A DNA stretch of 64,000 nt from a virus. The notes below the pieces were generated by a model. That model worked only from the letters and a program-made list of their open reading frames with translations, was not told the DNA's origin and searched no databases. Made by a program: the position numbers and the translations under genes. How positions within the stretch are numbered: position 1 is the first letter of the stretch; each line of letters begins with the position of its first letter. Location of the stretch: the IMG/VR virus record IMGVR_UViG_3300027749_000058, positions 32,001 through 96,000 of that record; one strand, given 5' to 3'. Positions 15,473 through 32,478 of the stretch are shown piece by piece.

Positions 15473-15480
15473 GAATTACT

Positions 15481-16993: not shown

Positions 16994-17039
16994 AATTTAT
17001 ATTTTTTACAAAAGTAATATTTTTTTTTTATAAAAAAAA

Positions 17040-17330: not shown

Positions 17331-17366
17331 AATTATTTTTTGTATTTTAAAGTTAATATTTTGTTT

Positions 17367-17855
17367 TTAATAAACAAATGATTTTTGATATTCATTCCAA
17401 ACTTTTTGTAATCCATCTGTTTCATTTATTAATGATGGTATAAAGGGCTTATGTTTCATTACCAATTTGGCTTCTTCAGGAGTTTTACTTCCTTTTTTGA
17501 GATTACATTTAAAACATGATGTAACCAAGTTTGTCCATTCATTTCCCCCACCTTTAGATTTAGGGATTACGTGGTCTAATGTTAGTTCTTTTTTTGACCC
17601 ACAATAAACGCATTCGTGTCCATCTCTTTTATAAATTCTTGATCTATTGGCCCTTAAATTTTTGGCTTGATGTTTAATATATTTTAATAATCTAATAATT
17701 AGTGGGCGCAAAAATGTTTTATATCCGCTAACAATAGGGTTATCATCTGATTTAATTAATTCAGCCCTACCTTTATCAACCAATACAAAACCCCGCCTAA
17801 TAGTTGTTATATTAAGAGGGGTGTAGTCATAATTTAATACTAAAACACCGCTCAT
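17367..17855 (-). CDS. HNH endonuclease (McrA-like)
   Basis: RDGHECVYCG...TLDHVIPKSKGG...WTNLVTSCFKCNLKKG. Confidence 0.92.
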   Translation of the reverse strand: MSGVLVLNYDYTPLNITTIRRGFVLVDKGRAELIKSDDNPIVSGYKTFLRPLIIRLLKYIKHQAKNLRANRSRIYKRDGHECVYCGSKKELTLDHVIPKSKGGGNEWTNLVTSCFKCNLKKGSKTPEEAKLVMKHKPFIPSLINETDGLQKVWNEYQKSFVY

Positions 17856-17938
17856 TACAATAATTTTTTACAATAATAGTTTATTTTATGATAAAAACAA
17901 AAAAGGGGTCAAAGACCCCTAATTAATATACTACAGAT

Positions 17939-18037
17939 TTAGTAATAGTTTATGGTTTGAGGTTTTTTAATTCTCAATACATCCGAGTTCTCATACTTAA
18001 TAATCTCCAAAAGACTTTCTCTATTTCTGTTTATCAT
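17939..18037 (-). CDS. small 32-aa ORF not in the track (MINRNRESLLEIIKYENSDVLRIKKPQTINYY)
   Basis: Preceded by TATTTAT, followed by the hairpin AGGGGTC-AAA-GACCCCT. Confidence 0.4.
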   Translation of the reverse strand: MINRNRESLLEIIKYENSDVLRIKKPQTINYY

Positions 18038-18105
18038 AATAATAAATATCTAAAAAAATTTTGTGAAATCAATTATTATATTATCTTTGTAAAAATTATT
18101 GAGAT

Positions 18106-18405
18106 ATGATTCATTTACCAACAGCAACAACTATGGGAACAAGTTTCCATGATACAACATTTAAATCAACTCCGAATCAATTAATTGAGGTATTAGGAGA
18201 AATCACCTATAAAGGTAGTAGTGACGAAAAAAGCACTATGGAATGGGTTAGAGAATTGGATAGTGCGGATGTTTTCACCGTATATGATTGGAAGTATTAT
18301 AGAGAACTTGAAATGGATGAAGAAATCCTATGGCACATTGGAGGAAAAAATAAATACATAACCGAACAGGCAAAAAAAGAAATTCTTAACCTTTTAAATA
18401 AATAA
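18106..18405 (+). CDS. hypothetical phage protein
   Basis: FTVYDWK...WHIGG; host-type promoter TATCTTTG near 18082. Confidence 0.7.
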   Translation: MIHLPTATTMGTSFHDTTFKSTPNQLIEVLGEITYKGSSDEKSTMEWVRELDSADVFTVYDWKYYRELEMDEEILWHIGGKNKYITEQAKKEILNLLNK

Positions 18406-18408
18406 AAT

Positions 18409-18687
18409 ATGCCAGATTTTTATGTTGATACTATTACAGTAGATGCTTACGAGTATGTAACGAGTTGTACCAAGAGTGAAATTAAAGAATTAATTTCGGA
18501 ATTAGTTGATGGTGATTACCTTCCATCATCAGTATTAAAATTAAATAAGGAAGGTAAGGTAGACGATGGACTTGGAAGATTACAATCTGATTTTGTAGAA
18601 AAATTAGATAAATTATCTAAAGTTTATTATTCTTTATCTAAAGAGGATGAAGAATTTTTGCAAACAATTTTTAACAAATACATATAA
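18409..18687 (+). CDS. hypothetical protein
   Basis: 92-aa ORF. Confidence 0.7.
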   Translation: MPDFYVDTITVDAYEYVTSCTKSEIKELISELVDGDYLPSSVLKLNKEGKVDDGLGRLQSDFVEKLDKLSKVYYSLSKEDEEFLQTIFNKYI

Positions 18688-18696
18688 ATAAAAACT

Positions 18697-19443
18697 ATGA
18701 AAATCAAACAAATTTTCCTTGCGGTAGCTATCACCTTATTAGCAATTTCTTGTACTAAACAGGATATCCCGGTACCACAACAAGATAATGTACTTCAAAC
18801 TAACTCAGTTGCTGCAACATCAAGTGTAACAACTGAAACAAATAATAAGGCATATATTTTTGTTGAACCAAATTCAAAATTCCAAACGGTTAAGACTTAT
18901 TTATCAAGTTTACCGAAAACACCTTTATACCCAATTAATTTTACAGGATTTTTTGGGGTTAATGCCAATGCTTGGAAATATACATATCAAAACTATGTAG
19001 ATATGCCTTATTGGAATAACGGAACACTTCCATCGATTATTGAATCCAATATCCCACAAACATCTGGTGGTGTTGATTCATACGGTAATGCTAAATTGGC
19101 TTATTGTTTTGAGACAATTAAAATACCAAAAAATACCACAGTTGGAATGGCTTGGATTACAATTTTAGTCCCTGTTTCAGCAATGAACAACGATATTAAA
19201 AGACTAAGGACGGTATATTCATATGAAAAAAATGCCACAACAGGAGTTCTTATAACAAATGGTAGTATTAAAGGTTGGACATATACTATGGATAATATCA
19301 TCTTTAGTTATGTAATTAACTATCAAGGAAATAGACTTCCTAAAGGTCTTTACAGACTTTATAGTACATACCCAGATACAGGTTTAAAGGCTAACTTGAA
19401 TGATAAAAATGACTATTACTTAAAAGGTAATAGTATTGAATAG
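18697..19443 (+). CDS. lipoprotein
   Basis: MKIKQIFLAVAITLLAISC lipobox. Confidence 0.8.
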   Translation: MKIKQIFLAVAITLLAISCTKQDIPVPQQDNVLQTNSVAATSSVTTETNNKAYIFVEPNSKFQTVKTYLSSLPKTPLYPINFTGFFGVNANAWKYTYQNYVDMPYWNNGTLPSIIESNIPQTSGGVDSYGNAKLAYCFETIKIPKNTTVGMAWITILVPVSAMNNDIKRLRTVYSYEKNATTGVLITNGSIKGWTYTMDNIIFSYVINYQGNRLPKGLYRLYSTYPDTGLKANLNDKNDYYLKGNSIE

Positions 19444-19561
19444 ACCAAATCCTAAATGGGACTCAAAAAAGTTTGAATTTTGAATATAATTTCTTATCTT
19501 TGATAAAAGTGGATAAAATGTGTAGTAGCCACAGGGAAGGTACCTCCCACTACACTCTTAA

Positions 19562-19634
19562 GCCTCCTTAGCTCAACTGGTAGAGCAATAGTTTTGTAAA
19601 TTATAGGTTGTTGGTTCGATTCCGACAGGAGGCT
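19562..19634 (+). tRNA. tRNA-Thr(UGU)
   Basis: GCCTCCT/AGGAGGC acceptor, ATAGT-TTTGTAA-ATTAT anticodon arm, GTTCGATTC. Confidence 0.93.
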
Positions 19635-19649
19635 CAAAAATTATTTATT

Positions 19650-19877
19650 ATGTTTTGGATTATTTATTTATTGTGTGCGGTTTATTGTTTTATTAAATTG
19701 CAAAAAAGTTACAAAAAAAGGTCTTTGGATGGTGTTATTGGTGTTTCTCCTGGTTTGGACGCCATAATGATAATTATATTATCTCCTGTGTTAGCAATTA
19801 TTGATGTTAGTTTAACTTGGATTAGGTTATATAAAGAAGCTGAACAATCAAGAATAGACCAAGAAAAAATATTATAA
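19650..19877 (+). CDS. small membrane protein
   Basis: Start moved to the ATG after the tRNA; two hydrophobic helices. Confidence 0.65.
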   Translation: MFWIIYLLCAVYCFIKLQKSYKKRSLDGVIGVSPGLDAIMIIILSPVLAIIDVSLTWIRLYKEAEQSRIDQEKIL

Positions 19878-19879
19878 CT

Positions 19880-20227
19880 ATGGCTCATCCAAACTTACAC
19901 GCAAAATCATCCGCAAAAAAATTTGGTGGAAAACCTGAAGATTATATCCATTTACATGAATGGTTAGATGAAACCAAGTCTTGGTTTGGAGATTCTTTAC
20001 ACAGGATGTTTAGACACCATAGTGAAGGTATTTTTGAGATGGAGAAAAGGTTTGGATCAGAATTTAAAAATAGTGATGGAAAGATAGTTTATACCAGATA
20101 TGTGGGAGAACAGCATGTGAAAGAAGATTGTAATAATTATATTCCATCCGCAAAAGAATATATTAATAATATCTCAACAAATCAGCGTCCTCAATGGATG
20201 ACGAGAACACTTAAACTGGAAGACTAA
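19880..20227 (+). CDS. DUF6915-like protein
   Basis: MAHPxxHAKSSAKKFGGKPEDY..H.WLDETK...HRMFRHHSEGIF...GEQHVKED. Confidence 0.7.
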   Translation: MAHPNLHAKSSAKKFGGKPEDYIHLHEWLDETKSWFGDSLHRMFRHHSEGIFEMEKRFGSEFKNSDGKIVYTRYVGEQHVKEDCNNYIPSAKEYINNISTNQRPQWMTRTLKLED

Positions 20228-20238
20228 TATTTATTGTT

Positions 20239-20967
20239 ATGAAAAGAGATGTTAATTCAATAAAGGTCTTATCACCTGACGACAAAAAATATTTAAAAAA
20301 AGTTTCCAATTATCTTAATTCATTGGGAATGCAAGATGGTACCATTGAACTTGATTTTAGTGGAGAACGTGTAAGATTATCAGATATAAATTGGAACAGA
20401 GAAACCCATTTTACAAATAACTATAGCGCAGAAATTCCTGATGGACTATTACCAATTCTTCAAAAGATAATAAATTATATTGATGTAAATGATTTATACC
20501 AACAACTTGATGAAGATGTAAACTATGAAAGAATAGAAATAGATATTGATACAAAAACAAAAGAAATATCTGTTTCTCATTTTTATTCATATTATGATAG
20601 GGGTAATGAAAATTCAGTTGAATTTGATTCCCAAGAAGATTTGGAACAATTTGATGGGTGGGTAAGTGATGAATTTGCAACAATAGATATACCTGAAACA
20701 GGAATATTAACATTAAGGTATAATGGTGGTGGTGATTCAGGGTATATTGAAAATTCATTTGAAGAAAATGGTGACGCTGTTCCTGCTGAAATTGAAGATT
20801 GGTGTTATAGAGCCTTAGAACAAAACTTCGGTGGGTGGGAAATTAATGAAGGTTCCGATGGGGAATTCATTTTTGATTTTAATAATTCAATGGTTACTTT
20901 AAACCATACTATGAATACAGAAGAAAATGCAAGTAATACTCTTTATGAAGAAAGTTTTGCTGATTAA
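20239..20967 (+). CDS. protein with DUF6878-like C-terminal domain
   Basis: YNGGGDSGYIE...GGWEINEGSDGEF. Confidence 0.6.
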   Translation: MKRDVNSIKVLSPDDKKYLKKVSNYLNSLGMQDGTIELDFSGERVRLSDINWNRETHFTNNYSAEIPDGLLPILQKIINYIDVNDLYQQLDEDVNYERIEIDIDTKTKEISVSHFYSYYDRGNENSVEFDSQEDLEQFDGWVSDEFATIDIPETGILTLRYNGGGDSGYIENSFEENGDAVPAEIEDWCYRALEQNFGGWEINEGSDGEFIFDFNNSMVTLNHTMNTEENASNTLYEESFAD

Positions 20968-21026
20968 TTTTATTTAATAAAAAAACAAAGTTTAGAGATT
21001 TTCGTATATATTTGTATTTATTAGTA

Positions 21027-21884
21027 ATGACACGAATTATATCACTTACTGAATCTGAACTTATGAACGTTGTGAAAACAATTTTGGAACAAGTTAATCT
21101 TAATGATTATATTGCAGAAGATTTTGTAGAAGTTTCTCTTCATTATTTTAGACCATGGATTAAACAAACTCACGGTGAAGAAATTGGTCAATATCCATTA
21201 TCTTTTTTGATTAAAAAATATTTGGATGAATTTTGTGAAGACAAACATATTGATTTAGGTAGCACCTATTATTCTAATAATTATAATAAATTGGCCGCGG
21301 TTGGTAAATTAATTGTAAAAAAAGGACTTCATGAATTACCAAGCATGAAACCTAAAGGATTATTCACAGAAAAATATAAAAAAGGTATTACAGCACTACT
21401 TGATCGTTTGGATATTCCTGATTATATGGAACTTAAAATTACCGAACCAGAACCTTATAATGTTAAAATAAAAACATATATTAAATTTGAACCATTATTA
21501 AAATCTGAAAATAAATTATCGTCATCATCGGTAATTACAAACAAGTTAAGACAATCTTTTCAAGATTATTTGGGAGTTACCTATGGATTGCCATCTCATG
21601 GAGAATTGAATTTATATATTGATGATACACCAGTATATCTTGGTCAGGATGAATGGGTTAAAAATGTTTTTAATAAAGAACTTAAGAAAAAAATTAAAGA
21701 ACTTCCTGAGGCAAAATCAGTTTTACGTTCAATTAAACTTGATGTGAGTCCATATTTATATGCCACAATAAAATTAGGATTCAATAGCAGTTCAAGATGG
21801 AATAGTCAAAAAGAATTTAAAGTAAAAGTTATTGACCTTTTGAAAGAAATGGGATACAATACGTCAATATTAAAAGTAGAATGA
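21027..21884 (+). CDS. late hypothetical protein
   Basis: ATG at 21027 after TATTTAT; N-terminus MTRIISLTESEL. Confidence 0.7.
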   Translation: MTRIISLTESELMNVVKTILEQVNLNDYIAEDFVEVSLHYFRPWIKQTHGEEIGQYPLSFLIKKYLDEFCEDKHIDLGSTYYSNNYNKLAAVGKLIVKKGLHELPSMKPKGLFTEKYKKGITALLDRLDIPDYMELKITEPEPYNVKIKTYIKFEPLLKSENKLSSSSVITNKLRQSFQDYLGVTYGLPSHGELNLYIDDTPVYLGQDEWVKNVFNKELKKKIKELPEAKSVLRSIKLDVSPYLYATIKLGFNSSSRWNSQKEFKVKVIDLLKEMGYNTSILKVE

Positions 21885-21992
21885 TTAAAACAATTAAATC
21901 CCTTTTATAGGGATTTTTTATTTGTATTTATCAATAAAACCCTTATCTTTGTGGAAGAAATTACTCACCTATAATCTAAAGGTGGGGAATAC

Positions 21993-22092
21993 GGTTCGGT
22001 AGCTCAGCTGGATAGTAGCGACAGCCTTCTTGGTCTATATTTTAGTATTACCAAGAAGCTGTAGGTCATTGGTTCGAATCCAATCCGGATCA
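21993..22092 (+). tRNA. tRNA-Arg(UCU) with a 25-nt insertion in the anticodon loop
   Basis: ACAGC-CTTCT[tggtctatattttagtattaccaag]AA-GCTGT; near-normal D arm, GTTCGAATC T arm, GGTTCGG/CCGGATC acceptor. Confidence 0.85.
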
Positions 22093-22143
22093 CAAATGGA
22101 AATAATATTTTTTTAATCCATTTAAATATATTTATTATCTTTG

Positions 22144-22229
22144 TTTTGTGATTGAAGACAACCTATTTAGATACAATCGGTCACAAAATTACGGGAAGGG
22201 ACAACAATTTAGATACCCTTCCTGTTTTA
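22144..22229 (+). ncRNA. putative two-hairpin small RNA with a repeated loop motif
   Basis: TATCTTTG promoter at 22136-22143; two hairpins with GACAAC(CT/A)ATTTAGATAC in both loops; T-tract at the end. Confidence 0.55.
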
Positions 22230-22634
22230 TTTACTCAAAATGAATTGGTCTTGAGCAGTTAATAATCCAAAATTTTCAGATGATGGAAAAATTGTAAGAA
22301 TAAATAATGACCAGTAATTGTCGTCAACTATTGTCGCAAGAATCGCACAATCAATTTTTGATTCTTTGTCTTTAATGGCAAACTTATCTCCATCAATAAT
22401 ATATCCATTAATAATTGCTTCCGCAATATCTCTTTTATATTTTTCAATTACATCAATAATTTCTTGATTGGAAATAATTCTATTACTCAGTGCTTCCCTA
22501 CCAAGATTTGACCTATCTCTTGTGTGTTTTGATGTAGAAACGTCAAATCCAAATGTTACTTGGAATGTATCAGACATTTGGGCAATTTTTCTTTCAAGTA
22601 ATAGTGTTTCTTTAATAAGTTTTCTGAGGTTCAT
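22227..22634 (-). CDS. late hypothetical protein
   Basis: MNLRKLIKETLLLE; TATTTAT upstream on the minus strand. Confidence 0.7.
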   Translation of the reverse strand: MNLRKLIKETLLLERKIAQMSDTFQVTFGFDVSTSKHTRDRSNLGREALSNRIISNQEIIDVIEKYKRDIAEAIINGYIIDGDKFAIKDKESKIDCAILATIVDDNYWSLFILTIFPSSENFGLLTAQDQFILSK

Positions 22635-22645
22635 AAAAATAAATA

Positions 22646-22676
22646 TTTGACAATTCGAAGATATTCCCTATCTTTG
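22646..22676 (+). promoter_or_regulatory. Bacteroidota sigma70-type promoter of the leader / tRNA array
   Basis: TTTG (22646-49), 19 nt, TATCTTTG (22669-76). Confidence 0.85.
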
Positions 22677-22692
22677 ATATAATTATAATAAC

Positions 22693-22791
22693 ATGAACAC
22701 TACAATGCGTCATATAGTCTTTAGTAAACAACAAGAAACTTGTTGGTATCAGATTATGCCTTGTAGTTCAGATGGTGATTCTCAAAATTAG
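22693..22791 (+). CDS. attenuator leader peptide MNTTMRHIVFSKQQETCWYQIMPCSSDGDSQN
   Basis: 33-codon ORF just after the promoter with an A-rich 5' region; overlaps attenuator segments 1 and 2. Confidence 0.8.
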   Translation: MNTTMRHIVFSKQQETCWYQIMPCSSDGDSQN

Positions 22792-22817
22792 TTAATTCCT
22801 GATGTATATTTATATAC

Positions 22818-22860
22818 AAACCCTGAACGACAGAAATGAAGTTCGGGGTTTTTTATTTTT
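22818..22860 (+). terminator. attenuator intrinsic terminator (3:4 hairpin)
   Basis: AAACCCTGAAC / GTTCGGGGTTT 11-bp stem (one G-U), then a T-tract. Confidence 0.85.
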
Positions 22861-22861
22861 G

Positions 22862-22873
22862 GCTCTTTGAAAT
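22862..22873 (+). promoter_or_regulatory. boxA-like antitermination element
   Basis: GCTCTTTGAAAT resembles rrn boxA (GCTCTTTAACA); a similar AGTTCTTTAACAT precedes the tmRNA. Confidence 0.6.
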
Positions 22874-22896
22874 ATTGGTTGTATATTTGTAAAAAT

Positions 22897-22948
22897 GATC
22901 CTGTTGACTATCGGTTAGGTCATCAGGTTCCGATTCCTACAAGGACTA
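22897..22948 (+). pseudogene. internally deleted tRNA remnant, probably Glu
   Basis: D arm GACTATCGGTTAGGTC typical of tRNA-Glu; anticodon stem TCAGGTT joined directly to T-loop remnant CCGATTCC. Confidence 0.55.
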
Positions 22949-22962
22949 CAAAAATTAAAATT

Positions 22963-23178
22963 ATGAAATACGTTTTTAGAGGTCATGTTGTGTTTGAATA
23001 CAAACCAAATGATAAAAGAGATAAAGTGGTTCAAGGTAAGATTCATGATGCAATTCCAGCATTTGATTTTTGTCATATGATTCCTGAGGACTATAAATTG
23101 TTAGCAAAATTTTTCAACACAGTTTATAGGCATATTCAAGGAGAAGATGTACCTTTGGAAGATATAGAAGTGTATTAA
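22963..23178 (+). CDS. hypothetical protein
   Basis: ATG at 22963 after an A-rich region. Confidence 0.65.
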   Translation: MKYVFRGHVVFEYKPNDKRDKVVQGKIHDAIPAFDFCHMIPEDYKLLAKFFNTVYRHIQGEDVPLEDIEVY

Positions 23179-23179
23179 T

Positions 23180-23252
23180 GGTGCTCAAGCTAACTTGGTA
23201 GAAGCGAAAGACTGAAAATCTTTAGGACTCGGCTCGGAACCGAGGAGTACCA
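23180..23252 (+). tRNA. tRNA-Phe(GAA), atypical T-loop
   Basis: AAAGA-CTGAAAA-TCTTT; T arm CTCGG-CTCGGAA-CCGAG. Confidence 0.88.
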
Positions 23253-23327
23253 CGGAGTCCCGAAATAACGGGAAACCCCCACTCCCATATGGCAGCCAGT
23301 CCGTTAACCTGGTGAAGTGGGGTAGGA

Positions 23328-23429
23328 TGTTAAGTAGTGGATATGTAAGCGGGCTCAAGCTCGGTAAGTCAAAAAGGTTATGACGCTCTTTACGAGACCA
23401 CGTTGTCGGTTCGAGTCCGACCTTAACAA
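23328..23429 (+). ncRNA. tRNA-like RNA without a canonical anticodon arm
   Basis: TGTTAAG/CTTAACA acceptor, GTCGG-TTCGAGT-CCGAC T arm, GTGG/CCAC stem enclosing three small hairpins. Confidence 0.65.
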
Positions 23430-23502
23430 CAAAGACATCAACGGAGTATATTCACACTTAGGAAACTATGTAATGGTCAAAATTCTAATGATGTCTTTAA
23501 AT

Positions 23503-23584
23503 AGTCAGGTGGCGGAATGTTAGACGCAATAAGGTTGTTCCTACCCGAAAAGGAGCTTACAGGTTCGAATCCTTGTCCTGATTA
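23503..23584 (+). ncRNA. tRNA-like RNA with Leu-type D arm and no canonical anticodon loop
   Basis: AGTCAGG/CCTGATT acceptor, GCGGAATGTTAGACGC D arm, GTTCGAATC T-loop, irregular middle stem. Confidence 0.6.
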
Positions 23585-23591
23585 CAAAATT

Positions 23592-23665
23592 GACTTCGTA
23601 GCTCAGTTGGTTAGAGCACTTCACTTTTAATGAAGGAGTCCCGAGTTCGAATCTCGGCGGGGTCA
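23592..23665 (+). tRNA. tRNA-Lys(UUU)
   Basis: CTTCA-CTTTTAA-TGAAG; canonical D and T arms. Confidence 0.95.
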
Positions 23666-23681
23666 CAAAAAAAAATATGTT

Positions 23682-23915
23682 ATGAAAGCAGTTTTAGAAT
23701 TTAATTTACCTGATGACCAACAGGATTTTGACTTGGCAACTAAAGGTTTGAAATTTTGGTCTGTGTTGTGGGAATTAGACCAGTCTTTAAGGGCTAAGAC
23801 AAAATATGCGTCTGATGATTTACCACAAGATAAGTATGATGCTTATCAAGAAATTAGAGATGAACTTCGTGAGTTAATGTCAGATAATAATCTTAGTTTT
23901 GATATGGTTCATTAA
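23682..23915 (+). CDS. hypothetical phage protein
   Basis: MKAVLEFNLPDD, 77 aa. Confidence 0.7.
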   Translation: MKAVLEFNLPDDQQDFDLATKGLKFWSVLWELDQSLRAKTKYASDDLPQDKYDAYQEIRDELRELMSDNNLSFDMVH

Positions 23916-23931
23916 TAAAAAAACATATATT

Positions 23932-24147
23932 ATGGAAAGAACATTTAATAGTGATGAGCTGTCTTGGATTGCATTTAGTTTACTAGAATATAGTCGCTCA
24001 ATGGATTATGAAGGTGATTTAAGTGATTGTGGTAATGAAATTGGGCATATGGTTGGGAGTAAATATAAAAATATGACTGAGGGTGAGATTGAAGATTTCA
24101 TTACTGGAATAAGACATGGGATTTCATTAACAAATGGAACCCATTAA
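23932..24147 (+). CDS. hypothetical protein
   Basis: ATG at 23932 (MERTF) within ORF 23899..24147. Confidence 0.65.
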   Translation: MERTFNSDELSWIAFSLLEYSRSMDYEGDLSDCGNEIGHMVGSKYKNMTEGEIEDFITGIRHGISLTNGTH

Positions 24148-24152
24148 AATAA

Positions 24153-24224
24153 GGTCGGTTGGCCGAGTGGTTTAGGTGTTTGTCTGCAAAACAAATTAGT
24201 CCAGTTCAATTCTGGAACCGACCT
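24153..24224 (+). tRNA. tRNA-Cys(GCA)
   Basis: TTTGT-CTGCAAA-ACAAA; GGTCGGT/ACCGACC acceptor; U73. Confidence 0.93.
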
Positions 24225-24225
24225 C

Positions 24226-24375
24226 ATGACAGAAAAACAAATTAAACAACAGATTGAATCCATCCAAAAGGTGACAAAAGATGTCTGTAAAAGTAAAGAA
24301 ACCGCTCGTCAATTTTTAATTGACGCAGGAATTATTAAAGTTAAAAAAATGAAAAAGAAATTTGATAAGCATTAG
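24226..24375 (+). CDS. small basic 49-aa protein, not in the track
   Basis: MTEKQIKQQIESIQKVTKDVCKSKETARQFLIDAGIIKVKKMKKKFDKH. Confidence 0.55.
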   Translation: MTEKQIKQQIESIQKVTKDVCKSKETARQFLIDAGIIKVKKMKKKFDKH

Positions 24376-24390
24376 GTAAACACCTAATGT

Positions 24391-24597
24391 ATGACCAGAA
24401 AAGAACAAAAAATCAAACAGATGAAGCGGTTATATAACTACTGTTTCATCTGTAATAAAAGAAGTGGAAGTTGGTATTATGATTGCCATCCAAGTAGTTG
24501 GAAAATTAAACGACACGGAAGTGGAAAACCTATATATTTTCATAAACAAAGAGAATATCAAAGTTGGAAACATAATCGTAATACCCAATGGAAATAA
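24391..24597 (+). CDS. small basic Cys/His/Trp-rich protein
   Basis: 68 aa; CFIC...CHP; ends WKHNRNTQWK. Confidence 0.55.
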   Translation: MTRKEQKIKQMKRLYNYCFICNKRSGSWYYDCHPSSWKIKRHGSGKPIYFHKQREYQSWKHNRNTQWK

Positions 24598-24602
24598 AAA
24601 AC

Positions 24603-24673
24603 GCGTGTATGATGTAACGGTAGCATGAATCTCTCCAAAAGATTTCGTTCCTGTTCGAATCGGGATATGCGCG
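24603..24673 (+). tRNA. tRNA-Trp(CCA)
   Basis: AATCT-CTCCAAA-AGATT; GTTCGAATC. Confidence 0.9.
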
Positions 24674-24677
24674 CAAA

Positions 24678-24800
24678 GGTTGATTGGGGAATGATGTGTG
24701 TTAGCCTGTTGGTGGTATGGCCGAACACATCGGAGTTAAAACCAACATTAGTAATGCCAATCATAAAAGGAGATGTCCACTCAACCATCTTCTCCTTTCC
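24678..24800 (+). ncRNA. putative pseudoknotted ncRNA
   Basis: TGATTGG/CCAATCA, GATGTGT/ACACATC, loop TGTTGGT complementary to downstream ACCAACA. Confidence 0.5.
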
Positions 24801-24808
24801 TGTTTTTT

Positions 24809-24890
24809 GGGAGTATCGCCTAGTGGCAATGGCAGGACACTGTAGATGTCCCCTCTTTTGAGTTCGTTGGTTCGAGTCCAGCTGCTCCCA
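24809..24890 (+). tRNA. tRNA-Tyr(GUA)
   Basis: GGACA-CTGTAGA-TGTCC; variable arm; GTTCGAGTC. Confidence 0.93.
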
Positions 24891-24979
24891 CAAAAATGTT
24901 CCAGCAGTTCTCTGAATAGAGGACTATAAAGAAAAGAAACGATGCATAGTTTCACGATAGGAGGGTCACCTATCAAAAT

Positions 24980-25053
24980 GGACTTGTAGCTCACTCGGTT
25001 AGAGCGGCACACTCATAATGTGAAGGTAATAGGTTCGATTCCTATCTGGTCCA
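24980..25053 (+). tRNA. tRNA with CAU anticodon (probably Ile2/lysidine type; Met not excluded)
   Basis: CACA-CTCATAA-TGTG; lacks initiator features (no C1 mismatch, no GGG/CCC anticodon stem). Confidence 0.85.
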
Positions 25054-25257
25054 CACGTTCCGAAACACAACAACGGATAATATGCCCAATATGATGAGAA
25101 ATGGAGTGATGTCCGTATGGGAACCTACATTGGAGTGGATGGGGATAACTTCAGGGAATATCATCCCGACCTCGTTAGGACGAAATGATTATTTCTAACT
25201 TGCCTTAGCAAGGACAGCCAAGATACCTGTAGTTGAATAAAATAGGGTATCATTTAT

Positions 25258-25328
25258 TGTATAGTAGTGTAACGGTAACACAACTTCCTTTGACGAAGTT
25301 ATTTTAAGTTCGAATCTTAACTATACAT
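25258..25328 (+). tRNA. tRNA-Gln(UUG)
   Basis: ACTTC-CTTTGAC-GAAGT; U1-A72 acceptor TGTATAG/CTATACA. Confidence 0.9.
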
Positions 25329-25330
25329 CA

Positions 25331-25975
25331 ATGAAGAAAGAAATTATAAATAAGGATTTCAGAGAATGTGAAATACCTGAAGGATTGGTTATTACCGATC
25401 CACCATACAATCAAGGATATTCATATAATGAATATAAAGACACCATGAGTGAAGAGGATTATATTGAGTTACTCTCAAAAATCCCAACACCATGTGTAAT
25501 AATTCATTATCCCGAAGAAACCATTAATTTACTACCAAAAGCATTAAAGGCAAAATGCGAACAAGTAGTTTGTTGGGTGTATAACTCAAATACGGGAAAA
25601 CAAAGTAGATTGATTAGTTGGTGGGGATGTAAACCTGATTTTAGGAAGGTTAGACAAGAATATAAAAACTTGAAAGATAAAAGAATTCAAGCCAGAATTG
25701 CTGAAGGTAAAACAGGTGCTAAACTATATGATTGGTGGGAGATAAATCAGGTAAAGAATGTTAGTAAAGAAAAAACTGAACATCCTTGTCAAATACCTGA
25801 AGAATTGATTAAAAAAATTATATTAACCACCGCCAAAGAAAATCAAACAATAATTGATGTTTTTGGAGGTAGCGGAACAACAAGTAAAGTTGCAAGTGAT
25901 TTGGGATTTGATTCAATCAGTTATGAGATTGATGAAAAGTATTGTGAAATCATTAAAAATAGACTAAATAAATAG
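25331..25975 (+). CDS. DNA amino-methyltransferase (N6A/N4C, beta class)
   Basis: TDPPYN motif IV before HPCQIP and DVFGGSGTT motif I. Confidence 0.92.
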   Translation: MKKEIINKDFRECEIPEGLVITDPPYNQGYSYNEYKDTMSEEDYIELLSKIPTPCVIIHYPEETINLLPKALKAKCEQVVCWVYNSNTGKQSRLISWWGCKPDFRKVRQEYKNLKDKRIQARIAEGKTGAKLYDWWEINQVKNVSKEKTEHPCQIPEELIKKIILTTAKENQTIIDVFGGSGTTSKVASDLGFDSISYEIDEKYCEIIKNRLNK

Positions 25976-25981
25976 TTTTAT

Positions 25982-26053
25982 GGTGTTTGAAGCATTAAGG
26001 TGATGCACTAGTTTGTGGAGCTAGAAAAGACGGGTCGGTACCGTCCTTACACC
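25982..26053 (+). tRNA. tRNA-His(GUG), atypical T-loop
   Basis: CTAGT-TTGTGGA-GCTAG; G-1 and C73; T arm GACGG-GTCGGTA-CCGTC; two acceptor mismatches. Confidence 0.82.
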
Positions 26054-26089
26054 CATATTTTTTTTCTTAGTATCATACTATTTATATGT

Positions 26090-26551
26090 ATGGAAAAAAA
26101 AGTAACTCTAACCAAAGAACAATTATTCAAGGTGATGAACTTGAATGAGGCTGAAAATAAAAAAGAAAAAAATGAAACATCTGATGTTGTTGATATGATT
26201 GCAACATTACTTCATTCAAGAAGCCAAACTCATATTTTTCATTGGCAAACAAAATCACAATCATCATTTGCTGAACATATGGCATTAGGAACTTATTATG
26301 ATGAAATTGTTGGACTAATTGATGGTATTGTTGAAAGTTATCAAGGAAAATATGAAATAATTACAGGATACAAAACAGTTGAAATGGTTGATTACAAATC
26401 AACAGAACAATTAATAAGTTACTTTAGAGAATTAGATAGCAATATTGAAAAAAATAGAAAGGGGATTAAAGAATCTTATATTCAAAATCAAATTGACGGA
26501 CTTCAAGAGTTAATTTTTTCTACATTATATAAATTAAGATTCTTGAAATAA
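26090..26551 (+). CDS. ferritin/Dps-like protein (DUF5856-like)
   Basis: HIFHWQT...AEHMALGTYYD...DGIVESYQG...LYKLRFL; ATG after TATTTATA at 26079. Confidence 0.75.
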   Translation: MEKKVTLTKEQLFKVMNLNEAENKKEKNETSDVVDMIATLLHSRSQTHIFHWQTKSQSSFAEHMALGTYYDEIVGLIDGIVESYQGKYEIITGYKTVEMVDYKSTEQLISYFRELDSNIEKNRKGIKESYIQNQIDGLQELIFSTLYKLRFLK

Positions 26552-26573
26552 GAATTAATTATTAAATAATTGA

Positions 26574-26610
26574 AAATCCCTCTAAATTAGTTGTTTAGGG
26601 GGATTTTTTA
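26574..26610 (+). terminator. intrinsic terminator
   Basis: AAATCCCTCTAAA...TTTAGGGGGATTTTTT. Confidence 0.75.
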
Positions 26611-26625
26611 TATATTTGTATTCAG

Positions 26626-26770
26626 AGAGACAGAGAAGTTCTACAGAAGTAGATAGGGCGTCGCATAATATCGGGGTGGAACACAGGGTTCCTATACGTG
26701 ATGTAACCCGAGCCGTAAACCATTGTTATCCTTGTGATGACCGAATAAATAATCGGTTGGTTCTGTCTCT
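26626..26770 (+). ncRNA. putative structured ncRNA of about 145 nt
   Basis: Follows TATATTTG (26611); closed by AGAGACAGA/TCTGTCTCT; several internal hairpins; GC-rich; no ORF. Confidence 0.55.
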
Positions 26771-26776
26771 TTTTAT

Positions 26777-26848
26777 TGAAACGTAATTCAGTGGTAGAAT
26801 GCTATTCTGATACGATAGTCGTCGGCGGTTCGAATCCGCCCGTTTCAA
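26777..26848 (+). tRNA. tRNA-Ile(GAU)
   Basis: CTATT-CTGATAC-GATAG; GGCGG-TTCGAAT-CCGCC. Confidence 0.9.
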
Positions 26849-26853
26849 CATTC

Positions 26854-26941
26854 GGAGAGTTGGGTGAGTGGTTTAAACCAGCAGTTTGCTAAACTGCCGT
26901 ATCTCTAAAGGATACCATTAGTTCAAATCTAATACTCTCCG
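26854..26941 (+). tRNA. tRNA-Ser(GCU)
   Basis: GCAGT-TTGCTAA-ACTGC; long variable arm; G73. Confidence 0.93.
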
Positions 26942-27047
26942 CAAAAAATTAGATAAAATTCACATAAAAATTGACTAAAACCAAAACTTTTACTATATTT
27001 ATAGTCTATTAAGTTTAAAAAACATTAAAAACAAAAAACAAACATTT

Positions 27048-27212
27048 ATGAAAAAAATCGTAGCATTATTTGCAATCGTAGCATTAGTTTCTTGCGGAAA
27101 CGGAACATCAACTCAAGTAAAATCTGATTCTTCTACTGTTGTAGTAGATTCAACTAAAACTGACTCTACAGTAGTTAAAGTAGATTCTGCAAAAGCCGAA
27201 AAAGTTAAATAA
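27048..27212 (+). CDS. small 54-aa lipoprotein, not in the track
   Basis: MKKIVALFAIVALVSC lipobox; repeated DS(S/T/A); long A-rich 5' region; terminator at 27235-27260. Confidence 0.85.
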   Translation: MKKIVALFAIVALVSCGNGTSTQVKSDSSTVVVDSTKTDSTVVKVDSAKAEKVK

Positions 27213-27258
27213 TATAACTTTTTCTTAAAACAGAAAACCCATCTTACGATGGGTTTTT

Positions 27259-28473
27259 TTATTTTAATAAGTTTTTAATTCTTTCTATATTTTCATCAAT
27301 TTTTTTACTACTCATACTATTTTTATTAAAGAAATTTTTAAGTTTAGGTTCTCCTCCCTTAGTCATTGATGGTATTTTATCATTTATTTTTTTACCTAAC
27401 CCAAGTATTTTTTTACCTATCCATGGGTAAAATGGATCATAATATTCTGTTTCTTTTTTATCCTTATCTTTGTCCTTATCTTTATCATCATCTTTCTTTT
27501 TATTTATATTATTAGTTGAAATTTCTTTATCTAAAATTATAGGTAAATTTAATTTAGTCCATGATTTATCGTATAATGAAACTGTTACATCAGAAGATGT
27601 TTTTCCTAAAATATCTCCCTTAAATATTTTTTGACCATCTCTAACTTCAGGGTTAGATATACCACAAAATAATAAATAATAAGTCTTATCTTCAATAGAA
27701 TGTTGAATTGTTATTTGATTAGGACAACGACCTTCAGAATGATAGTTATTAATTACACCATTAGTTGGTGATTTTATCTTAGTATTCGTACTACTTGGGA
27801 TAATAATTGAAGTATTATTACTTGAAATTCTATCACCTAATTTTGAATATATTTTTTCTTCTTTTATTCCGAGTTGTGATGCGGTATTTTGCAATGCTTT
27901 AACTGTTGCATCATTATAGTCTATATGACTAGTTCCGAATTGGTCATCGTTTGGTTGTTGTGTTGTTCCGGATTGTGTTGTTCCAGATTGTGGACTAGTT
28001 GCGACTGAGTTTCCTCCATTTGTGTTAGATACGTGAACATGATTATCATGACCTTTAAATCCAAACGTTAAAACAGCTTTAGGATTTCCTGTTTCTGAAT
28101 TTTTTACATATCCCATTTTAACCAATGCATTTACAAATTGGTCTGCATCTGATCTATTTGCGAGACTAACATTTTTACCATTAATCATTGCAATATCAAC
28201 TGCATTTCCACTTGGATGTCTTGAAGGAAGACTTTCATGACCTGATTGAGCTGTAGTAATACTAACATTAACATTCGCAGCTTTAGCTGCGTCTTGGACA
28301 TCTTTTAAAAGTTGTTGATTAATATTATCTCTTGATGGATAACTATTTGCTCCGTCTCTAAAATCTACATTGGGACCAGGGTCAATAGCTTCTGTTGCCA
28401 AGTCTTTTTTAAAATCTCTTTTTAAATCTGAAAGAATATCGTAAGTCTCATTAATTTTTTTAATTTCAATCAT
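27259..28473 (-). CDS. putative peptidoglycan peptidase (M15-like catalytic domain plus degenerate M23-like domain)
   Basis: SRHPSGNAVDI...HDNHVHV; IKSPTNGVI...VRDGQKIFKGDILG. Confidence 0.7.
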   Translation of the reverse strand: MIEIKKINETYDILSDLKRDFKKDLATEAIDPGPNVDFRDGANSYPSRDNINQQLLKDVQDAAKAANVNVSITTAQSGHESLPSRHPSGNAVDIAMINGKNVSLANRSDADQFVNALVKMGYVKNSETGNPKAVLTFGFKGHDNHVHVSNTNGGNSVATSPQSGTTQSGTTQQPNDDQFGTSHIDYNDATVKALQNTASQLGIKEEKIYSKLGDRISSNNTSIIIPSSTNTKIKSPTNGVINNYHSEGRCPNQITIQHSIEDKTYYLLFCGISNPEVRDGQKIFKGDILGKTSSDVTVSLYDKSWTKLNLPIILDKEISTNNINKKKDDDKDKDKDKDKKETEYYDPFYPWIGKKILGLGKKINDKIPSMTKGGEPKLKNFFNKNSMSSKKIDENIERIKNLLK

Positions 28474-28522
28474 ATTAATAAATACTACGATATTAGATAA
28501 AAAAAAACCGAGGTAACTCGGT

Positions 28523-28885
28523 TTATCTATTTGAAGAATAATTTAATACTTTCTTTTGTGTTGGTTGATTCAAATTAGTAGGTTCTTTACTAAATGTTTC
28601 AGATTGAACTTGGTCTAATACTTTTGTCTCAACCTCATTTAATTGAACCTTTTTTGACTTTGGTTTTTTATCCTCAATTAAACCAAATTTAATCCATCTA
28701 TACCATATCCTTTCATGAAAATAATATATTACAGGTTTAAATATCATTTCAGCAACTCCAAACGCCGCTCCAATTTTAATACTACCAGTTATACACCACA
28801 TAATTAAAAATCCGGCAAATGTGCTAATAATTCTATAACTTATTGTTTTTCCTATATGCCTTTTGGTTGATACTTTATAACTCAT
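28523..28885 (-). CDS. DUF2061-like membrane protein
   Basis: RHIGKTISYRIIST...YYFHERIW. Confidence 0.75.
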   Translation of the reverse strand: MSYKVSTKRHIGKTISYRIISTFAGFLIMWCITGSIKIGAAFGVAEMIFKPVIYYFHERIWYRWIKFGLIEDKKPKSKKVQLNEVETKVLDQVQSETFSKEPTNLNQPTQKKVLNYSSNR

Positions 28886-29004
28886 ATTGAATAATTATCA
28901 TGAAAATTGAATTATGTGTTCACGGACTGGTGAGATATTATATTTCGGAGTGAACTTTCTTTCACCGACGCAGTCGATTACCACCAGTTTAACCATTTTG
29001 AAAT

Positions 29005-29193
29005 TTAAGACTTTTTATTTTCCTCCATCTCAATTCTGTTTTTTAAATCTAATTCAATAATTTTATTTTTCCACTCTTTCCAAATCTCAAAATCTTGTAA
29101 ATTTTGAATTGTCTTCTCATGTAGTAAAACAAATCCCTCAGGAGCAACTCCTGAATATCTATTCTTAACTATCTCATTTATTGATATCTTCAT
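29005..29193 (-). CDS. hypothetical protein
   Basis: 62-aa ORF. Confidence 0.55.
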   Translation of the reverse strand: MKISINEIVKNRYSGVAPEGFVLLHEKTIQNLQDFEIWKEWKNKIIELDLKNRIEMEENKKS

Positions 29194-29782
29194 TTAATTT
29201 TTTGATTATTTTATCTTTTAACCCTGTTTGTTTTAATCCTTCTCCACTCTTAGTTAAAAAGAAATTGTCAACTGGTTTTAATCCACCTTGTCTTAAATCC
29301 AAATCGTCAATTGCGATGAATTCAGTTACATTATAATCCTTAACAAATTTATCAACCTCAAAAAATCGATTTCTTTCTAAATCAAAAGATGATTTTAAAT
29401 TTTCGGTTACAAATTTAGGTGAACGGATTACACCATTTTCCTTAAAAATAGTGTCTAATTGTGATAAATCCCAATGTAATTTCCAATCTGAACTAAGAAC
29501 GATGACCGCTTCAGTTTTCTCTAATATTTCGTTAAAAACTTTAACACATCCTTTATCAAATCCGTACGGTACTCTTAATTCTTTCGCCCAATCATTGTTT
29601 TGACTAAATTTATTTCGGTTTCCCATAAATTGTTTATCGGTAGCCAATACACCATCTATGTCTAAAAATATTACTTTCATATTTGTTAATTTTTGTATAT
29701 GTTCACTAATAGTAAGTTCTTCACATTTCCAACACCATTCATTATCTTGTGTGTCCCAAATATGTCTATCGCATTTTGCCAT
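29174..29782 (-). CDS. HAD-superfamily phosphatase (HAD_SAK_2-like)
   Basis: VIFLDIDGVL, IVLSSDWK, FIAIDD. Confidence 0.85.
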   Translation of the reverse strand: MAKCDRHIWDTQDNEWCWKCEELTISEHIQKLTNMKVIFLDIDGVLATDKQFMGNRNKFSQNNDWAKELRVPYGFDKGCVKVFNEILEKTEAVIVLSSDWKLHWDLSQLDTIFKENGVIRSPKFVTENLKSSFDLERNRFFEVDKFVKDYNVTEFIAIDDLDLRQGGLKPVDNFFLTKSGEGLKQTGLKDKIIKKLNEDINK

Positions 29783-29858
29783 AATGTAAAGATACGATAT
29801 TTATATTAAAATACCAAGGTTATTTAACCTATAAAATTTAAACAGTAATAAATGGAAG

Positions 29859-30083
29859 ATGGAGATAAACAGAAAAACGTGGAGAGGAACCTTTCAGGAG
29901 AATCTTTCTCAAATATTTTTAATGCTGGCACTGTTTTTCAATCCTTTTGGATTCGATGCCGTTCAATATTCCCTAATATTACTGACAGGCAGTTTATGGA
30001 AAGCGAACTTCGTCTTGTATTGTATAGCGGGAGTATTTTTTGGTTGTTATATCTACTTTCGCAGATTATCTAAAAAAAATTAA
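29859..30083 (+). CDS. small membrane protein
   Basis: Hydrophobic helices (FLMLALFFNPFG, FVLYCIAGVFFGCYIYF). Confidence 0.6.
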   Translation: MEINRKTWRGTFQENLSQIFLMLALFFNPFGFDAVQYSLILLTGSLWKANFVLYCIAGVFFGCYIYFRRLSKKN

Positions 30084-31573
30084 AGAGCTCTTAATTCACC
30101 ATTTTTAAATGATTCAAAATTTGGACCAGGTATTATAATAAAACGTCTACCTTCTCTTTTGTATTGGATAATACCTGCCAAAACAGCGGCAGAAAAGAAT
30201 GATGAATATTGACCATCCCACCTACTTGCCGCTGAAAATTCAGAACTTCCTGGTCTGGCATATTCTTTTTTACCATCAACAACTCTTGATTTAAGAGTAC
30301 CGATATATTCCAAGAAATCTAATTTTGTTCCATTATCATATCCCGCATCTAAATAATCAACCATTTTTTTAATCATTCCTTTGTTTTTACCAAAGGTATA
30401 ACCGCTATTTGGTTTGTTCCAAACTTTTGATGTTTCTGTACCAGATGCTTTTCGAACAAGTTTTGGGTTATTTTGAACATGTGTTAATATTCTGCTGCCA
30501 ATATGTTTTCTAATTCCTTCGGCCATTTGAGAAATAGTGTTTTGAATAATGTAAGTTGAATCAATTCCCCATTCTTCTAAACCGAGGTCTACATGATATG
30601 GTGTATTATCGTCACTCATAAACCCTATACTAGCAGTAAATGACTTAGTATCTTTAGTATCATATTTAATAAACATTTGATATTCATCAAAGAATCTGTT
30701 AGTACTCTTTGAATCAATTAATGATACTGTAACCATACCTCCAGAACGTCCAAAATCAAAATTAGGAATATTTTCAAATCCTCTTACAAATACTGATAAA
30801 GTATAAGTTGATTGTAAATAATTTTTAATGTCTACTGAGGTGTAACCCATTGAGTTAAAAACTGATATTAATAGTTTGGAAGTACCACTTGTTCTAATTA
30901 TTTCATAATCTTTGTTAATTGCATCTATTATTTCAGGAAATGCGTAATTCATAACATCAATTTCTCTTTGGTTCATTGGTACGTCTTGAGAATCATAATA
31001 TCTTGTATGTCCTTCATTATCAAAATGAATTGCAATTTTTGAATAAGTTCTGTTTGTGGAATTGTCTTTGTTAATAATAAAATAAAGGGCTTGGTTACCT
31101 TGAGTATATCTTCCAAAATGTCCTGAGCTATGTGAGGATACACACCATTTTGTGTTGTAACCGTATTTACAGGAAGCTTCCTCGGTTTTTGGTTTTATAA
31201 CTAAAAACTTATTATCTTCGTAAATCTTATCAGCTTGTTTTTCTAATTCTTTCTCTTTTTCTTTCTCATGAAATGGTTTTAAAGCTTCTTCCAATTCAGA
31301 AAAAGTATTGTATTGATTGATATCTTTCTTTTTTAATTGAGATTGGTATTTGTCAAAATCTTTTACTAAATCAACGGCAATATCAACATTCATGTCAATA
31401 TCCGAATTTGGGTCTAAAACCTTTAAGATAAAATCTGTGTATTTGTGATTAAAATCTTGTAAATCAGAAATACCCAACACAAAGTCTAACACTTCATCAT
31501 CAAACTTGCTTGAATATTTTTTCTTTAAATCTTCTTTTCTACCTTCTTTAACAAGGATTGATATTAATTTCAT
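30080..31573 (-). CDS. late protein with KYGxxTKWC domain
   Basis: MKLISILVKEG; KDINQY..F.EL; ASCKYGYNTKWC. Confidence 0.7.
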   Translation of the reverse strand: MKLISILVKEGRKEDLKKKYSSKFDDEVLDFVLGISDLQDFNHKYTDFILKVLDPNSDIDMNVDIAVDLVKDFDKYQSQLKKKDINQYNTFSELEEALKPFHEKEKEKELEKQADKIYEDNKFLVIKPKTEEASCKYGYNTKWCVSSHSSGHFGRYTQGNQALYFIINKDNSTNRTYSKIAIHFDNEGHTRYYDSQDVPMNQREIDVMNYAFPEIIDAINKDYEIIRTSGTSKLLISVFNSMGYTSVDIKNYLQSTYTLSVFVRGFENIPNFDFGRSGGMVTVSLIDSKSTNRFFDEYQMFIKYDTKDTKSFTASIGFMSDDNTPYHVDLGLEEWGIDSTYIIQNTISQMAEGIRKHIGSRILTHVQNNPKLVRKASGTETSKVWNKPNSGYTFGKNKGMIKKMVDYLDAGYDNGTKLDFLEYIGTLKSRVVDGKKEYARPGSSEFSAASRWDGQYSSFFSAAVLAGIIQYKREGRRFIIIPGPNFESFKNGELRAL

Positions 31574-31594
31574 ACAAATAAATATACCAATAAG

Positions 31595-31945
31595 TTACTT
31601 CCAAAGAAATTGGATTGATAATATTATAAAACATAAGAATAGACATACTGATGTTTTTAATGTTAAAGGTTCTTTGAGTAGAAACCAAGACATTGCAGTA
31701 AAAACTATAACACCCAAACTAAACCCTATTAGACGATTTGGCCACGTTTGTCCTCCCCACAGTTCGACCATTGTTCTGCTTGCCATAATGACGTAATACC
31801 CTATAGGAATCCCTAATATTGCCATAATCATTGGGTTGTCTTTTATCCATTTATTAAAGAGATGTCCTTGTAGTTGGTAAAATGTGAAAACTTGCGACAC
31901 TAAATAAACAAATAAGACAAAAAAAATTGATGATACCTTATTCAT
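31595..31945 (-). CDS. small multi-pass membrane protein
   Basis: Start moved to 31945 (MNKVSS); about four hydrophobic helices. Confidence 0.7.
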   Translation of the reverse strand: MNKVSSIFFVLFVYLVSQVFTFYQLQGHLFNKWIKDNPMIMAILGIPIGYYVIMASRTMVELWGGQTWPNRLIGFSLGVIVFTAMSWFLLKEPLTLKTSVCLFLCFIILSIQFLWK

Positions 31946-32009
31946 TTTGTAATGATAATAAAATAAATGAAATAAAAAAGGGTTCAAAATAGAACCCTTT
32001 TTTATTATG

Positions 32010-32405: not shown

Positions 32406-32478
32406 ATATGTTAAAGAACTTATTCAAAGATAAGTATAAATATTGAAATTCCAAATAAAACCGGTATTTATAAACAAT

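Follow-up and report, generated by a model that had tools for sequence, protein, structure and literature searches.

A leader open reading frame bearing the codons of a phage tRNA array is probably a ribosome-mediated attenuator

The stretch of DNA analysed here, referred to as the window, comprises 64,000 nucleotides (nt), positions 32,001 to 96,000 of the IMG/VR virus record IMGVR_UViG_3300027749_000058. That record, 110.9 kb long, is a piece of a T4-like phage (gp20 portal, gp23 capsid, T4-type terminase), and the hosts of the phage are of the Bacteroidota type. From position 22646 onward, the window holds a promoter, a short leader open reading frame (ORF), an intrinsic terminator and a second promoter, followed by an array of transfer RNA (tRNA) genes, all on the strand given (+). 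The leader is probably a ribosome-mediated transcription attenuator that senses the decoding of the array's codons. It has long been an open question why tRNA genes are present in phages and what controls them. Accounts of tRNA-cleaving defences (PrrC, PARIS, retron effectors) and of the phage tRNAs that evade them sharpen the question (PMC10264068, PMC11464382, PMC11555353).

The first promoter, P1 (22646-22676), is of the Bacteroidota type: TTTG at 22646 and TATCTTTG at 22669 (TTTG-N19-TATCTTTG) match the -33/-7 pattern TTTG-N19-TAnnTTTG. The pattern has 11 matches in the window against 4.3 expected, four of them within the tRNA region, and P1-equivalent motifs lie upstream of most homologues. 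P1 is followed by a conserved A/U-rich 5' leader (AUAAUUAUAAUAAC, 22679-22692), nearly invariant in 24 variants of the element, and by the leader ORF of 32 codons (22693-22791), which encodes MNTTMRHIVFSKQQETCWYQIMPCSSDGDSQN. Beyond the ORF lies the intrinsic terminator (22818-22860), an 11-bp stem (22818-22828/22841-22851) with a U-run, identified from its fold and conservation. The hairpin (22818-22851) has a folding energy of -17.1 kcal/mol (z = -4.4), the U-run extends to 22860, and the helix is paired in 98.7% of cells across the homologues; a consensus terminator scan missed it because the loop is beyond the limit of that scan. The second promoter, P2 (22858-22889, TTTG-N20-TATATTTG), fits the consensus of P1. 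In nearly all homologues it is kept in the interval from terminator to tRNA-Glu (consensus TTTGGyTCTTTGAAATATTGGTTGTAnnTTTG), where it stands 41-56 nt 5' of tRNA-Glu and ends 6-11 nt 5' of it. A first-pass annotation of the window had proposed P1, the 32-residue ORF, the terminator and the second promoter match, and each is present. It had also read a boxA-like site at 22862. The letters in question, GCTCTTTGAAATA, bear a loose likeness to E. coli boxA, fall within P2 in the interval from its -33 to its -7 element and are kept as part of it; they are the conserved spacer of that promoter, and the boxA reading finds no support.

The leader RNA has four segments with three mutually exclusive pairings, as the same annotation had supposed. 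Segment 1 (22694-22705) pairs with segment 2 (UUGUAGUUCAG, 22761-22771); segment 2 pairs alternatively with segment 3 (22820-22833), which comprises the 5' arm of the terminator and the start of its loop; and segment 3 pairs with segment 4 in the terminator. In the 1:2 helix 94% of cells are paired, and 6 sequences have GC in place of AU at one pair. Within it stands an apical hairpin (CAACAAG-AAA-CUUGUUG, 22729-22745; 98.8% of cells paired), possibly a pause hairpin. Taken together, the 1:2, apical and 3:4 helices have 97.4% of cells paired. For the 2:3 antiterminator the figure is 89.7%, against 30-49% with the partner slid, and two of its pairs have changed on both sides (U-A to C-G and G-C to A-U). 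At one exchanged position the terminator partner stays U, the 3:4 pair going from A-U to G-U while the 2:3 pair becomes C-G. Because the sequences compared are close relatives, this covariation supports the pairing without deciding the matter. The 1:2 hairpin has an energy of -21.5 kcal/mol in the window versus -13.6 for the 2:3 alternative, and 2:3 reaches -17.5 in the relative L008. No Rfam family, T-box included, matches the leader (22640-22860), and no T-box match was found at E values up to 10 in 19000-28000.

The frame of the leader ORF has been kept open. Its ATG is invariant in the 24 variants, and its length ranges from 26 to 32 codons. On a minimum spanning tree of the 24 leader cores, no stop arose in the leader frame over 152 nucleotide changes, where 8.5 would be expected of an unconstrained frame (P = 2e-4). 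The changes fall 26/28/45 on the three codon positions, an excess at the third, and 27/80 are synonymous in the leader frame versus 15/77 and 17/81 in the other two. The variants were grouped into types A, B and a more divergent C. The peptide is not conserved as a protein: its C-termini differ between types A and B, and with a 1-nt indel after TGG the conserved nucleotides of segment 2 are read in different frames in the two types. An open frame that is kept while its peptide is not conserved is what is expected of a leader that needs to be translated but whose product is irrelevant.

Downstream of the leader, between 23180 and 26942, ARAGORN calls nine tRNAs: tRNA-Phe(GAA) (23180-23253), tRNA-Lys(UUU) (23592-23666), tRNA-Cys(GCA) (24153-24225), tRNA-Trp(CCA) (24603-24674), tRNA-Tyr(GUA) (24809-24891), a tRNA with anticodon CAU that is either elongator Met or Ile2 (24980-25054), tRNA-Gln(UUG) (25258-25329), tRNA-Ile(GAU) (26777-26849) and tRNA-Ser(GCU) (26854-26942). 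The first-pass annotation had counted ten intact tRNAs; these nine stand, and the tenth, tRNA-His(GUG) (25983-26053), is marginal, has a degenerate T loop and is detected by Rfam only (32.4 bits, the cut-off being 29 bits). Two other features noted there proved right: a terminator and promoter inside the array (26572-26618), before tRNA-Ile(GAU) and tRNA-Ser(GCU), and a remnant of tRNA-Glu(UUC) (22897-22950), which by alignment with intact orthologues retains the 5' half and has a deletion that runs from the anticodon loop to the T arm. With tRNA-Val and tRNA-Arg(ACG) also gone, the array is decayed. Upstream, too, the layout is that of a decayed copy of the array of relatives, with tRNA-Thr at 19562, tRNA-Leu(UAG) absent, and a reverse-strand ORF (22227-22634) between a tRNA-Arg(UCU) orthologue and the intact leader element.

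Codons 5-22 of the leader form a "roster" of codons read by the downstream tRNAs. The window leader has a codon for 10/10 downstream tRNA species (p = 8e-4 in a Monte Carlo test using the phage's own codon usage), coverage that only 4/14,482 real 31-codon gene windows match. The first-pass annotation, which drew attention to this match, had called for a statistical test of it, for a check of whether the ORF and pairings are conserved in relatives, and for a check of whether leader codons co-vary with arrays; the outcome is favourable in each case, and the match is stronger in relatives with full arrays. In L006 and L014, 13/13 downstream species have a leader codon (Monte Carlo p ~1e-5 to 2e-5), and 0 of ~14,700 real gene windows equal these leaders in coverage and in-set fraction. 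The residues encoded by codons 5-22 of L005 and L006 are M R H I V F S K Q Q E I C W Y E I M. They correspond precisely to the 13 amino acids for which there are downstream tRNAs, with none of those of the upstream tRNAs; Arg is written as CGT, which is read by Arg-ACG, and Ser as AGT, which is read by Ser-GCU. Non-synonymous variants among homologues stay within the set in 15 instances and leave it in 3, against 49% expected (p = 0.003), as in the swap of F10/Y19 (type A) for Y10/F19 (type B). The leader thus has the regulatory codons of an attenuator in the form of a single-codon roster rather than a run. Colinearity of leader order with gene order appeared in type A only, after rotation (p = 0.009), and in type B there was none; it was dropped.

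Scans of IMG/VR and of metagenomes by pattern found the leader module in at least 24 distinct variants of uncultured relatives, on contigs of 14-321 kb. The metagenome pattern was loose, most of its 120 matches being due to chance, and only full-element matches were used. In relatives the element always lies between tRNA-Leu(UAG) and tRNA-Glu. The order upstream is Pro-Asn-Asp-Gly-Gly-Thr-(Ala), then ~2 kb, then Leu(UAA)-Arg(UCU)-Leu(UAG), the element and P2; the order after P2 is Glu-Val-Phe-Lys-Cys-(Ile)-Trp-Tyr-Met(CAU)-Gln-Arg(ACG)-Met(CAU)-His-Ile-Ser(GCU), in which the sequences of the two CAU tRNAs do not separate Met from Ile2. A cultured-phage collection gave no DNA match to 22200-23300 or to 15000-35000. 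Judged by its major capsid protein, Flavobacterium phage immuto (42% identity) is the nearest relative in culture, and it has only 3-4 tRNAs; the 51-amino-acid ORF that precedes them shows neither roster nor terminator.

Co-variation of leader and array was assessed in 17 distinct combinations with complete arrays, using leader codons 2-21. When a tRNA is present in the array its codon is in the leader in 129/132 cells, and when a codon class is missing from the leader the tRNA is missing too in 22/25 cells. Permuting arrays among leaders gives p = 1e-4 (4e-4 in a smaller set), by a statistic that ignores relatedness. The losses recur in separate lineages. K12 has given way to H or Q on at least four occasions, always in an array without tRNA-Lys; R6 has changed to Q or H in arrays mostly without Arg(ACG); where tRNA-Val has been lost, codon 9 drifts (V, S, D, G, E); and codon 10 is F or I according to the presence of tRNA-Phe in 4/5 type-C lineages.

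A second module of the same build, leader 1, lies in relatives before the Pro-Asn-Asp-Gly-Gly-Thr(-Ala)...Leu-Arg(UCU)-Leu array, and constitutes an independent replicate of the roster design. It has a promoter, an ORF of 30-34 codons (e.g., MRHLNLNTGNTPTTPNGDTGTLCLDSDTDVG) and a paralogous terminator (ACCCUGAAyCUUGAAAGUUCGGGG plus a U-run). Leader 1 abounds in codons for T, P, N, G, D and L and in AGA, the very codons that its downstream tRNAs decode, and the division of upstream and downstream codon sets between leader 1 and the leader described above (leader 2) is significant in five phages (Fisher p between 1e-7 and 3e-3). In leader 1, segment 2 (AGAUUCAG, AGGUUCAG or UAGUUCAG) varies in step with the terminator 5' arm (CUGAAUCU, CUGAACCU or CUGAACU), and the 2:3 helix, read by eye from the sequences, shows an A-U to G-C change between variants. 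In the relative L104, tRNA-Pro follows immediately 3' of the U-run of leader 1, which leaves no room for a -33/-7 promoter, so that, barring a promoter that overlaps with the terminator hairpin, only read-through can bring transcription to the upstream array. Leader 1 in L104 thus shows the arrangement of an attenuator with no promoter after its terminator. No equivalent of GCTCTTTGAAATA was found after leader 1 in the sequences of relatives, and leader 1 itself is absent from the 110.9-kb record of the window.

These features suggest a mechanism in which the leader is translated, ribosome and polymerase are coupled, and read-through of the terminator is the output, as we infer from the arrangement of the parts. 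P1 would transcribe the 32-codon leader. In its RNA segment 1, which overlaps the AUG, would pair with segment 2 (codons 23-27), and segment 2 could instead pair with segment 3, the 5' arm of the intrinsic terminator. If the first ribosome is quick to reach the end of the ORF, it would cover segment 2, the 3:4 terminator would form, and the P1 transcript would end at ~22851-22860. A ribosome held at any of codons 1-21 would make segment 1 unavailable and leave segment 2 free; free segment 2 would then capture segment 3 ahead of the synthesis of segment 4, and RNA polymerase would continue into the tRNA genes. With one or two codons per downstream tRNA species in codons 5-22, the leader would report whichever species is limiting. 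Limitation might come about by cleavage or decay of host tRNAs, by starvation, or when the phage tRNA is still insufficient; candidate triggers are an anticodon nuclease, starvation, and a simple feedback in which the phage senses its own tRNA supply. Basal transcription of the array is most likely supplied by P2, on top of which the attenuator probably adds transcription from P1. Because P2 is conserved after the terminator, the leader is better seen as a boost to basal transcription than as an on/off switch; the first-pass proposal that the leader switches the array on is supported in its attenuator design, with a boost as the likelier output. Where the leader directly follows tRNA-Leu, the attenuator would also add transcription from the upstream array.

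Several observations weigh against this interpretation. The equilibrium fold of the complete leader is always the terminator, with or without a ribosome mask. Equilibrium always favours the terminator, as in trp, so the switch would have to be kinetic, and its test too; equilibrium folding with ribosome masks cannot discriminate and was set aside as a test of the model. In a kinetic test, whose outcome speaks for the attenuator, the nascent RNA 3' of the ribosome was folded only up to the terminator loop. In this nascent-RNA model segment 3 is held by segment 2 with a probability of 0.75-0.95 for every position of the ribosomal A site from codon 1 to codon 21 in type A, or to codon 20 in type B. 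Past that boundary the antiterminator probability is predicted to be <=0.2 in type A, to fall more slowly in type B, and to be ~0 at the stop codon. The predicted boundary coincides with the end of the roster, and leader 1 behaves alike in the model.

The remaining points against the interpretation concern the promoters, the pairings and the codons. Of six structural features of attenuators, the leader has five. The sixth, the lack of an independent promoter after the terminator, is not found for this leader: promoter-like P2 is conserved there, so the array need not rely on read-through. Transcription-translation coupling in these hosts is assumed. The covariation consists of few events among close relatives, and in 1:2 and 3:4 only one pair has changed on both sides. 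One or two leader codons per tRNA would give a low gain unless depletion is severe. Retention of a codon after loss of its tRNA is common (50 cells): the window itself retains CGT, GTC and GAA, with tRNA-Arg(ACG), Val and Glu lost or broken. Leaders of the L008 type have no His codon though tRNA-His is present, and L002 (IMGVR_UViG_3300009159_000067) keeps the leader with no tRNA within 5.8 kb.

The alternative that survives best grants that the roster ORF is translated and senses the speed of decoding, but places the output elsewhere than in read-through. The terminator would be constitutive and P2 the sole promoter of the array, and the leader would control, for example, the stability or trans-activity of a ~170-nt RNA, or the occlusion of P2. 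P2 is indeed conserved and well placed, 6-11 nt before tRNA-Glu, and two elements, a conserved spacer bearing a small hairpin (AAUUCCUGAAGAGUU) and the invariant loop of the terminator (ACAGAAAUG), are not fully explained by attenuation. Trans-acting RNAs derived from attenuators are known, an example being rnTrpL (PMC6614838). The conserved 2:3 pairing and the ribosome-position profile, however, fit attenuation specifically, and in L104 leader 1 abuts tRNA-Pro with no room for a -33/-7 promoter. No target of a trans-acting RNA turned up, and none was searched for. We consider this alternative unlikely. It is more doubtful still that the module is a decaying relic in this phage, an attenuator that works in relatives while the eroded array here is driven by P2 and the promoter at 26610. 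The tRNA-Glu remnant, the absence of tRNA-Val and tRNA-Arg(ACG), the marginal tRNA-His, the 25-nt insertion in the tRNA-Arg(UCU) orthologue, and the lack of leader 1 and most of array 1 in the record all point that way; against it, P1, the leader with its four segments and the terminator are all intact, the module is nearly identical to those of L099 and L118, both with full arrays, and nine clear tRNAs still lie downstream. Least probable is a stand-alone small gene, for a small stable RNA like those of the T4 tRNA cluster or for a 26-32-residue peptide, with a codon likeness to the array that is due to chance: its own promoter and strong terminator, the L002 element without any array, and the extent of conservation at the RNA level (with segment 2 in different frames in types A and B) would suit it, but it was already disfavoured by the roster statistics, the complementary second leader, the joint loss of codons and tRNAs and the in-set substitutions, and a functional peptide by the C-terminus that is not conserved as protein.

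Ribosome-mediated attenuation, the preferred explanation, has enterobacterial counterparts. Multivalent leaders include those of ilvGMEDA (Ile/Leu/Val) and thr (Thr/Ile); trpL, hisL, leuL and pheL are further leaders of this kind. The phage leader shares with the ilvGMEDA and thr type a short translated leader, exclusive 1:2/2:3/3:4 pairings, an intrinsic terminator thermodynamically stronger than the antiterminator, a choice that is kinetic, and the sensing of more than one amino acid. Unlike them, it is phage-encoded and controls tRNA genes rather than biosynthetic enzymes; it has one or two codons for each of ~13 tRNA species where they have runs for 1-3 amino acids; a promoter follows its terminator; and two paralogous leaders divide the codon table between two arrays. 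The control of tRNA genes, the roster design and the paired leaders are what distinguish it from known attenuators.

Three other systems are instructive. The attenuator of E. coli pheST (phenylalanyl-tRNA synthetase), with the pheM leader peptide and its Phe codon run, likewise acts on a component of translation by way of charged-tRNA supply; it senses a single amino acid and controls a synthetase, not tRNA genes. T-box riboswitches also sense tRNA status and choose between terminator and antiterminator before translation-related genes, but they bind uncharged tRNA directly and have no ORF, and there is no T-box match here. The long tRNA array of Anabaena sp. PCC 7120 (the trn operon) is induced under translational stress (PMC8421152), by control at the promoter through direct repeats and the TrcR repressor (PMC10272220). 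Both there and here an accessory tRNA array is raised when translation is impaired, an effect observed in Anabaena and proposed for the phage; the Anabaena study (PMC8421152) makes no mention of a leader peptide, attenuation or a terminator. In full-text searches of the literature we found no account of leader-peptide control of tRNA genes.

By extension, and with slightly more reserve than for the window itself, we think it likely that large phages control tRNA arrays by roster leaders: an ORF before each array would have one codon for every tRNA encoded there, and slow decoding of any of these codons would relieve a terminator and raise the whole tRNA block. Slow decoding would arise, for example, after attack by a host anticodon nuclease or through tRNA decay during infection. 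Should this be true, it would be the first known case of leader-peptide attenuation acting on tRNA genes, a homeostat and a counter-defence sensor in one, by which a phage would gauge decoding capacity codon by codon and match its tRNA supply to it. Leader-peptide attenuation would be extended from amino-acid operons to tRNA genes. The roster would also provide a signature by which functional tRNA blocks could be recognized in the sequences of uncultured phages, and a small natural device for sensing tRNA availability, open to testing with simple reporters.

Several further features of the tRNA region and its relatives may be recorded. The tRNA-Arg(UCU) orthologue upstream of the leader (21993-22092; compare L006:4278) scores 45 bits in Rfam and is not called by ARAGORN. 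Its 25-nt insertion follows anticodon base 36 and lengthens the anticodon stem by 9 bp (CUUCUUGGU...ACCAAGAAG); the orthologue could be a pseudogene or contain a mini-intron. Further upstream, tRNA-Thr is preceded by a promoter of its own and, in the interval, by a hairpin (GUGUAGU...ACUACAC) (19472-19561), in the place that leader 1 and the Pro-Asn-Asp-Gly tRNAs occupy in relatives. At 22130-22235 another TATCTTTG box is followed by ~85 nt, a hairpin (GGGAAGGG...CCCUUCC) and a U-run, which may be a small transcription unit or a shared terminator of the reverse-strand ORF at 22227-22634. In L002, at 5784-5950, leader 2 and its terminator are kept without P2, and small protein ORFs come next.

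Within the array, a tRNA-like remnant of 102 nt (23328-23429) has good acceptor and T arms and scores 26 bits in Rfam, below the cut-off, and a class-II-like tRNA fragment (23505-23590) lies immediately 5' of tRNA-Lys. Protein genes are interspersed with the tRNAs. Among them, one encodes an N6/N4 DNA methylase (25331-25975), and another (26015-26551) a Dps-like DUF5856 protein, annotated in PHROG as a "starvation-inducible regulator". The stress-induced tRNA array of Anabaena shares its regulation with a dps gene (PMC8421152). Between the promoter at 26610 (TATATTTG) and tRNA-Ile lies a structured, G+C-richer stretch of ~150 nt (26609-26776). It matches no Rfam family apart from a weak, chance-level His_leader match on the opposite strand only. 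It has a closing helix (GAGAGACAGA/UCUGUCUCU) followed by a U-run, and shares the motif GCCGUAAAC..CAUUG with the segment immediately after tRNA-Glu of L005.

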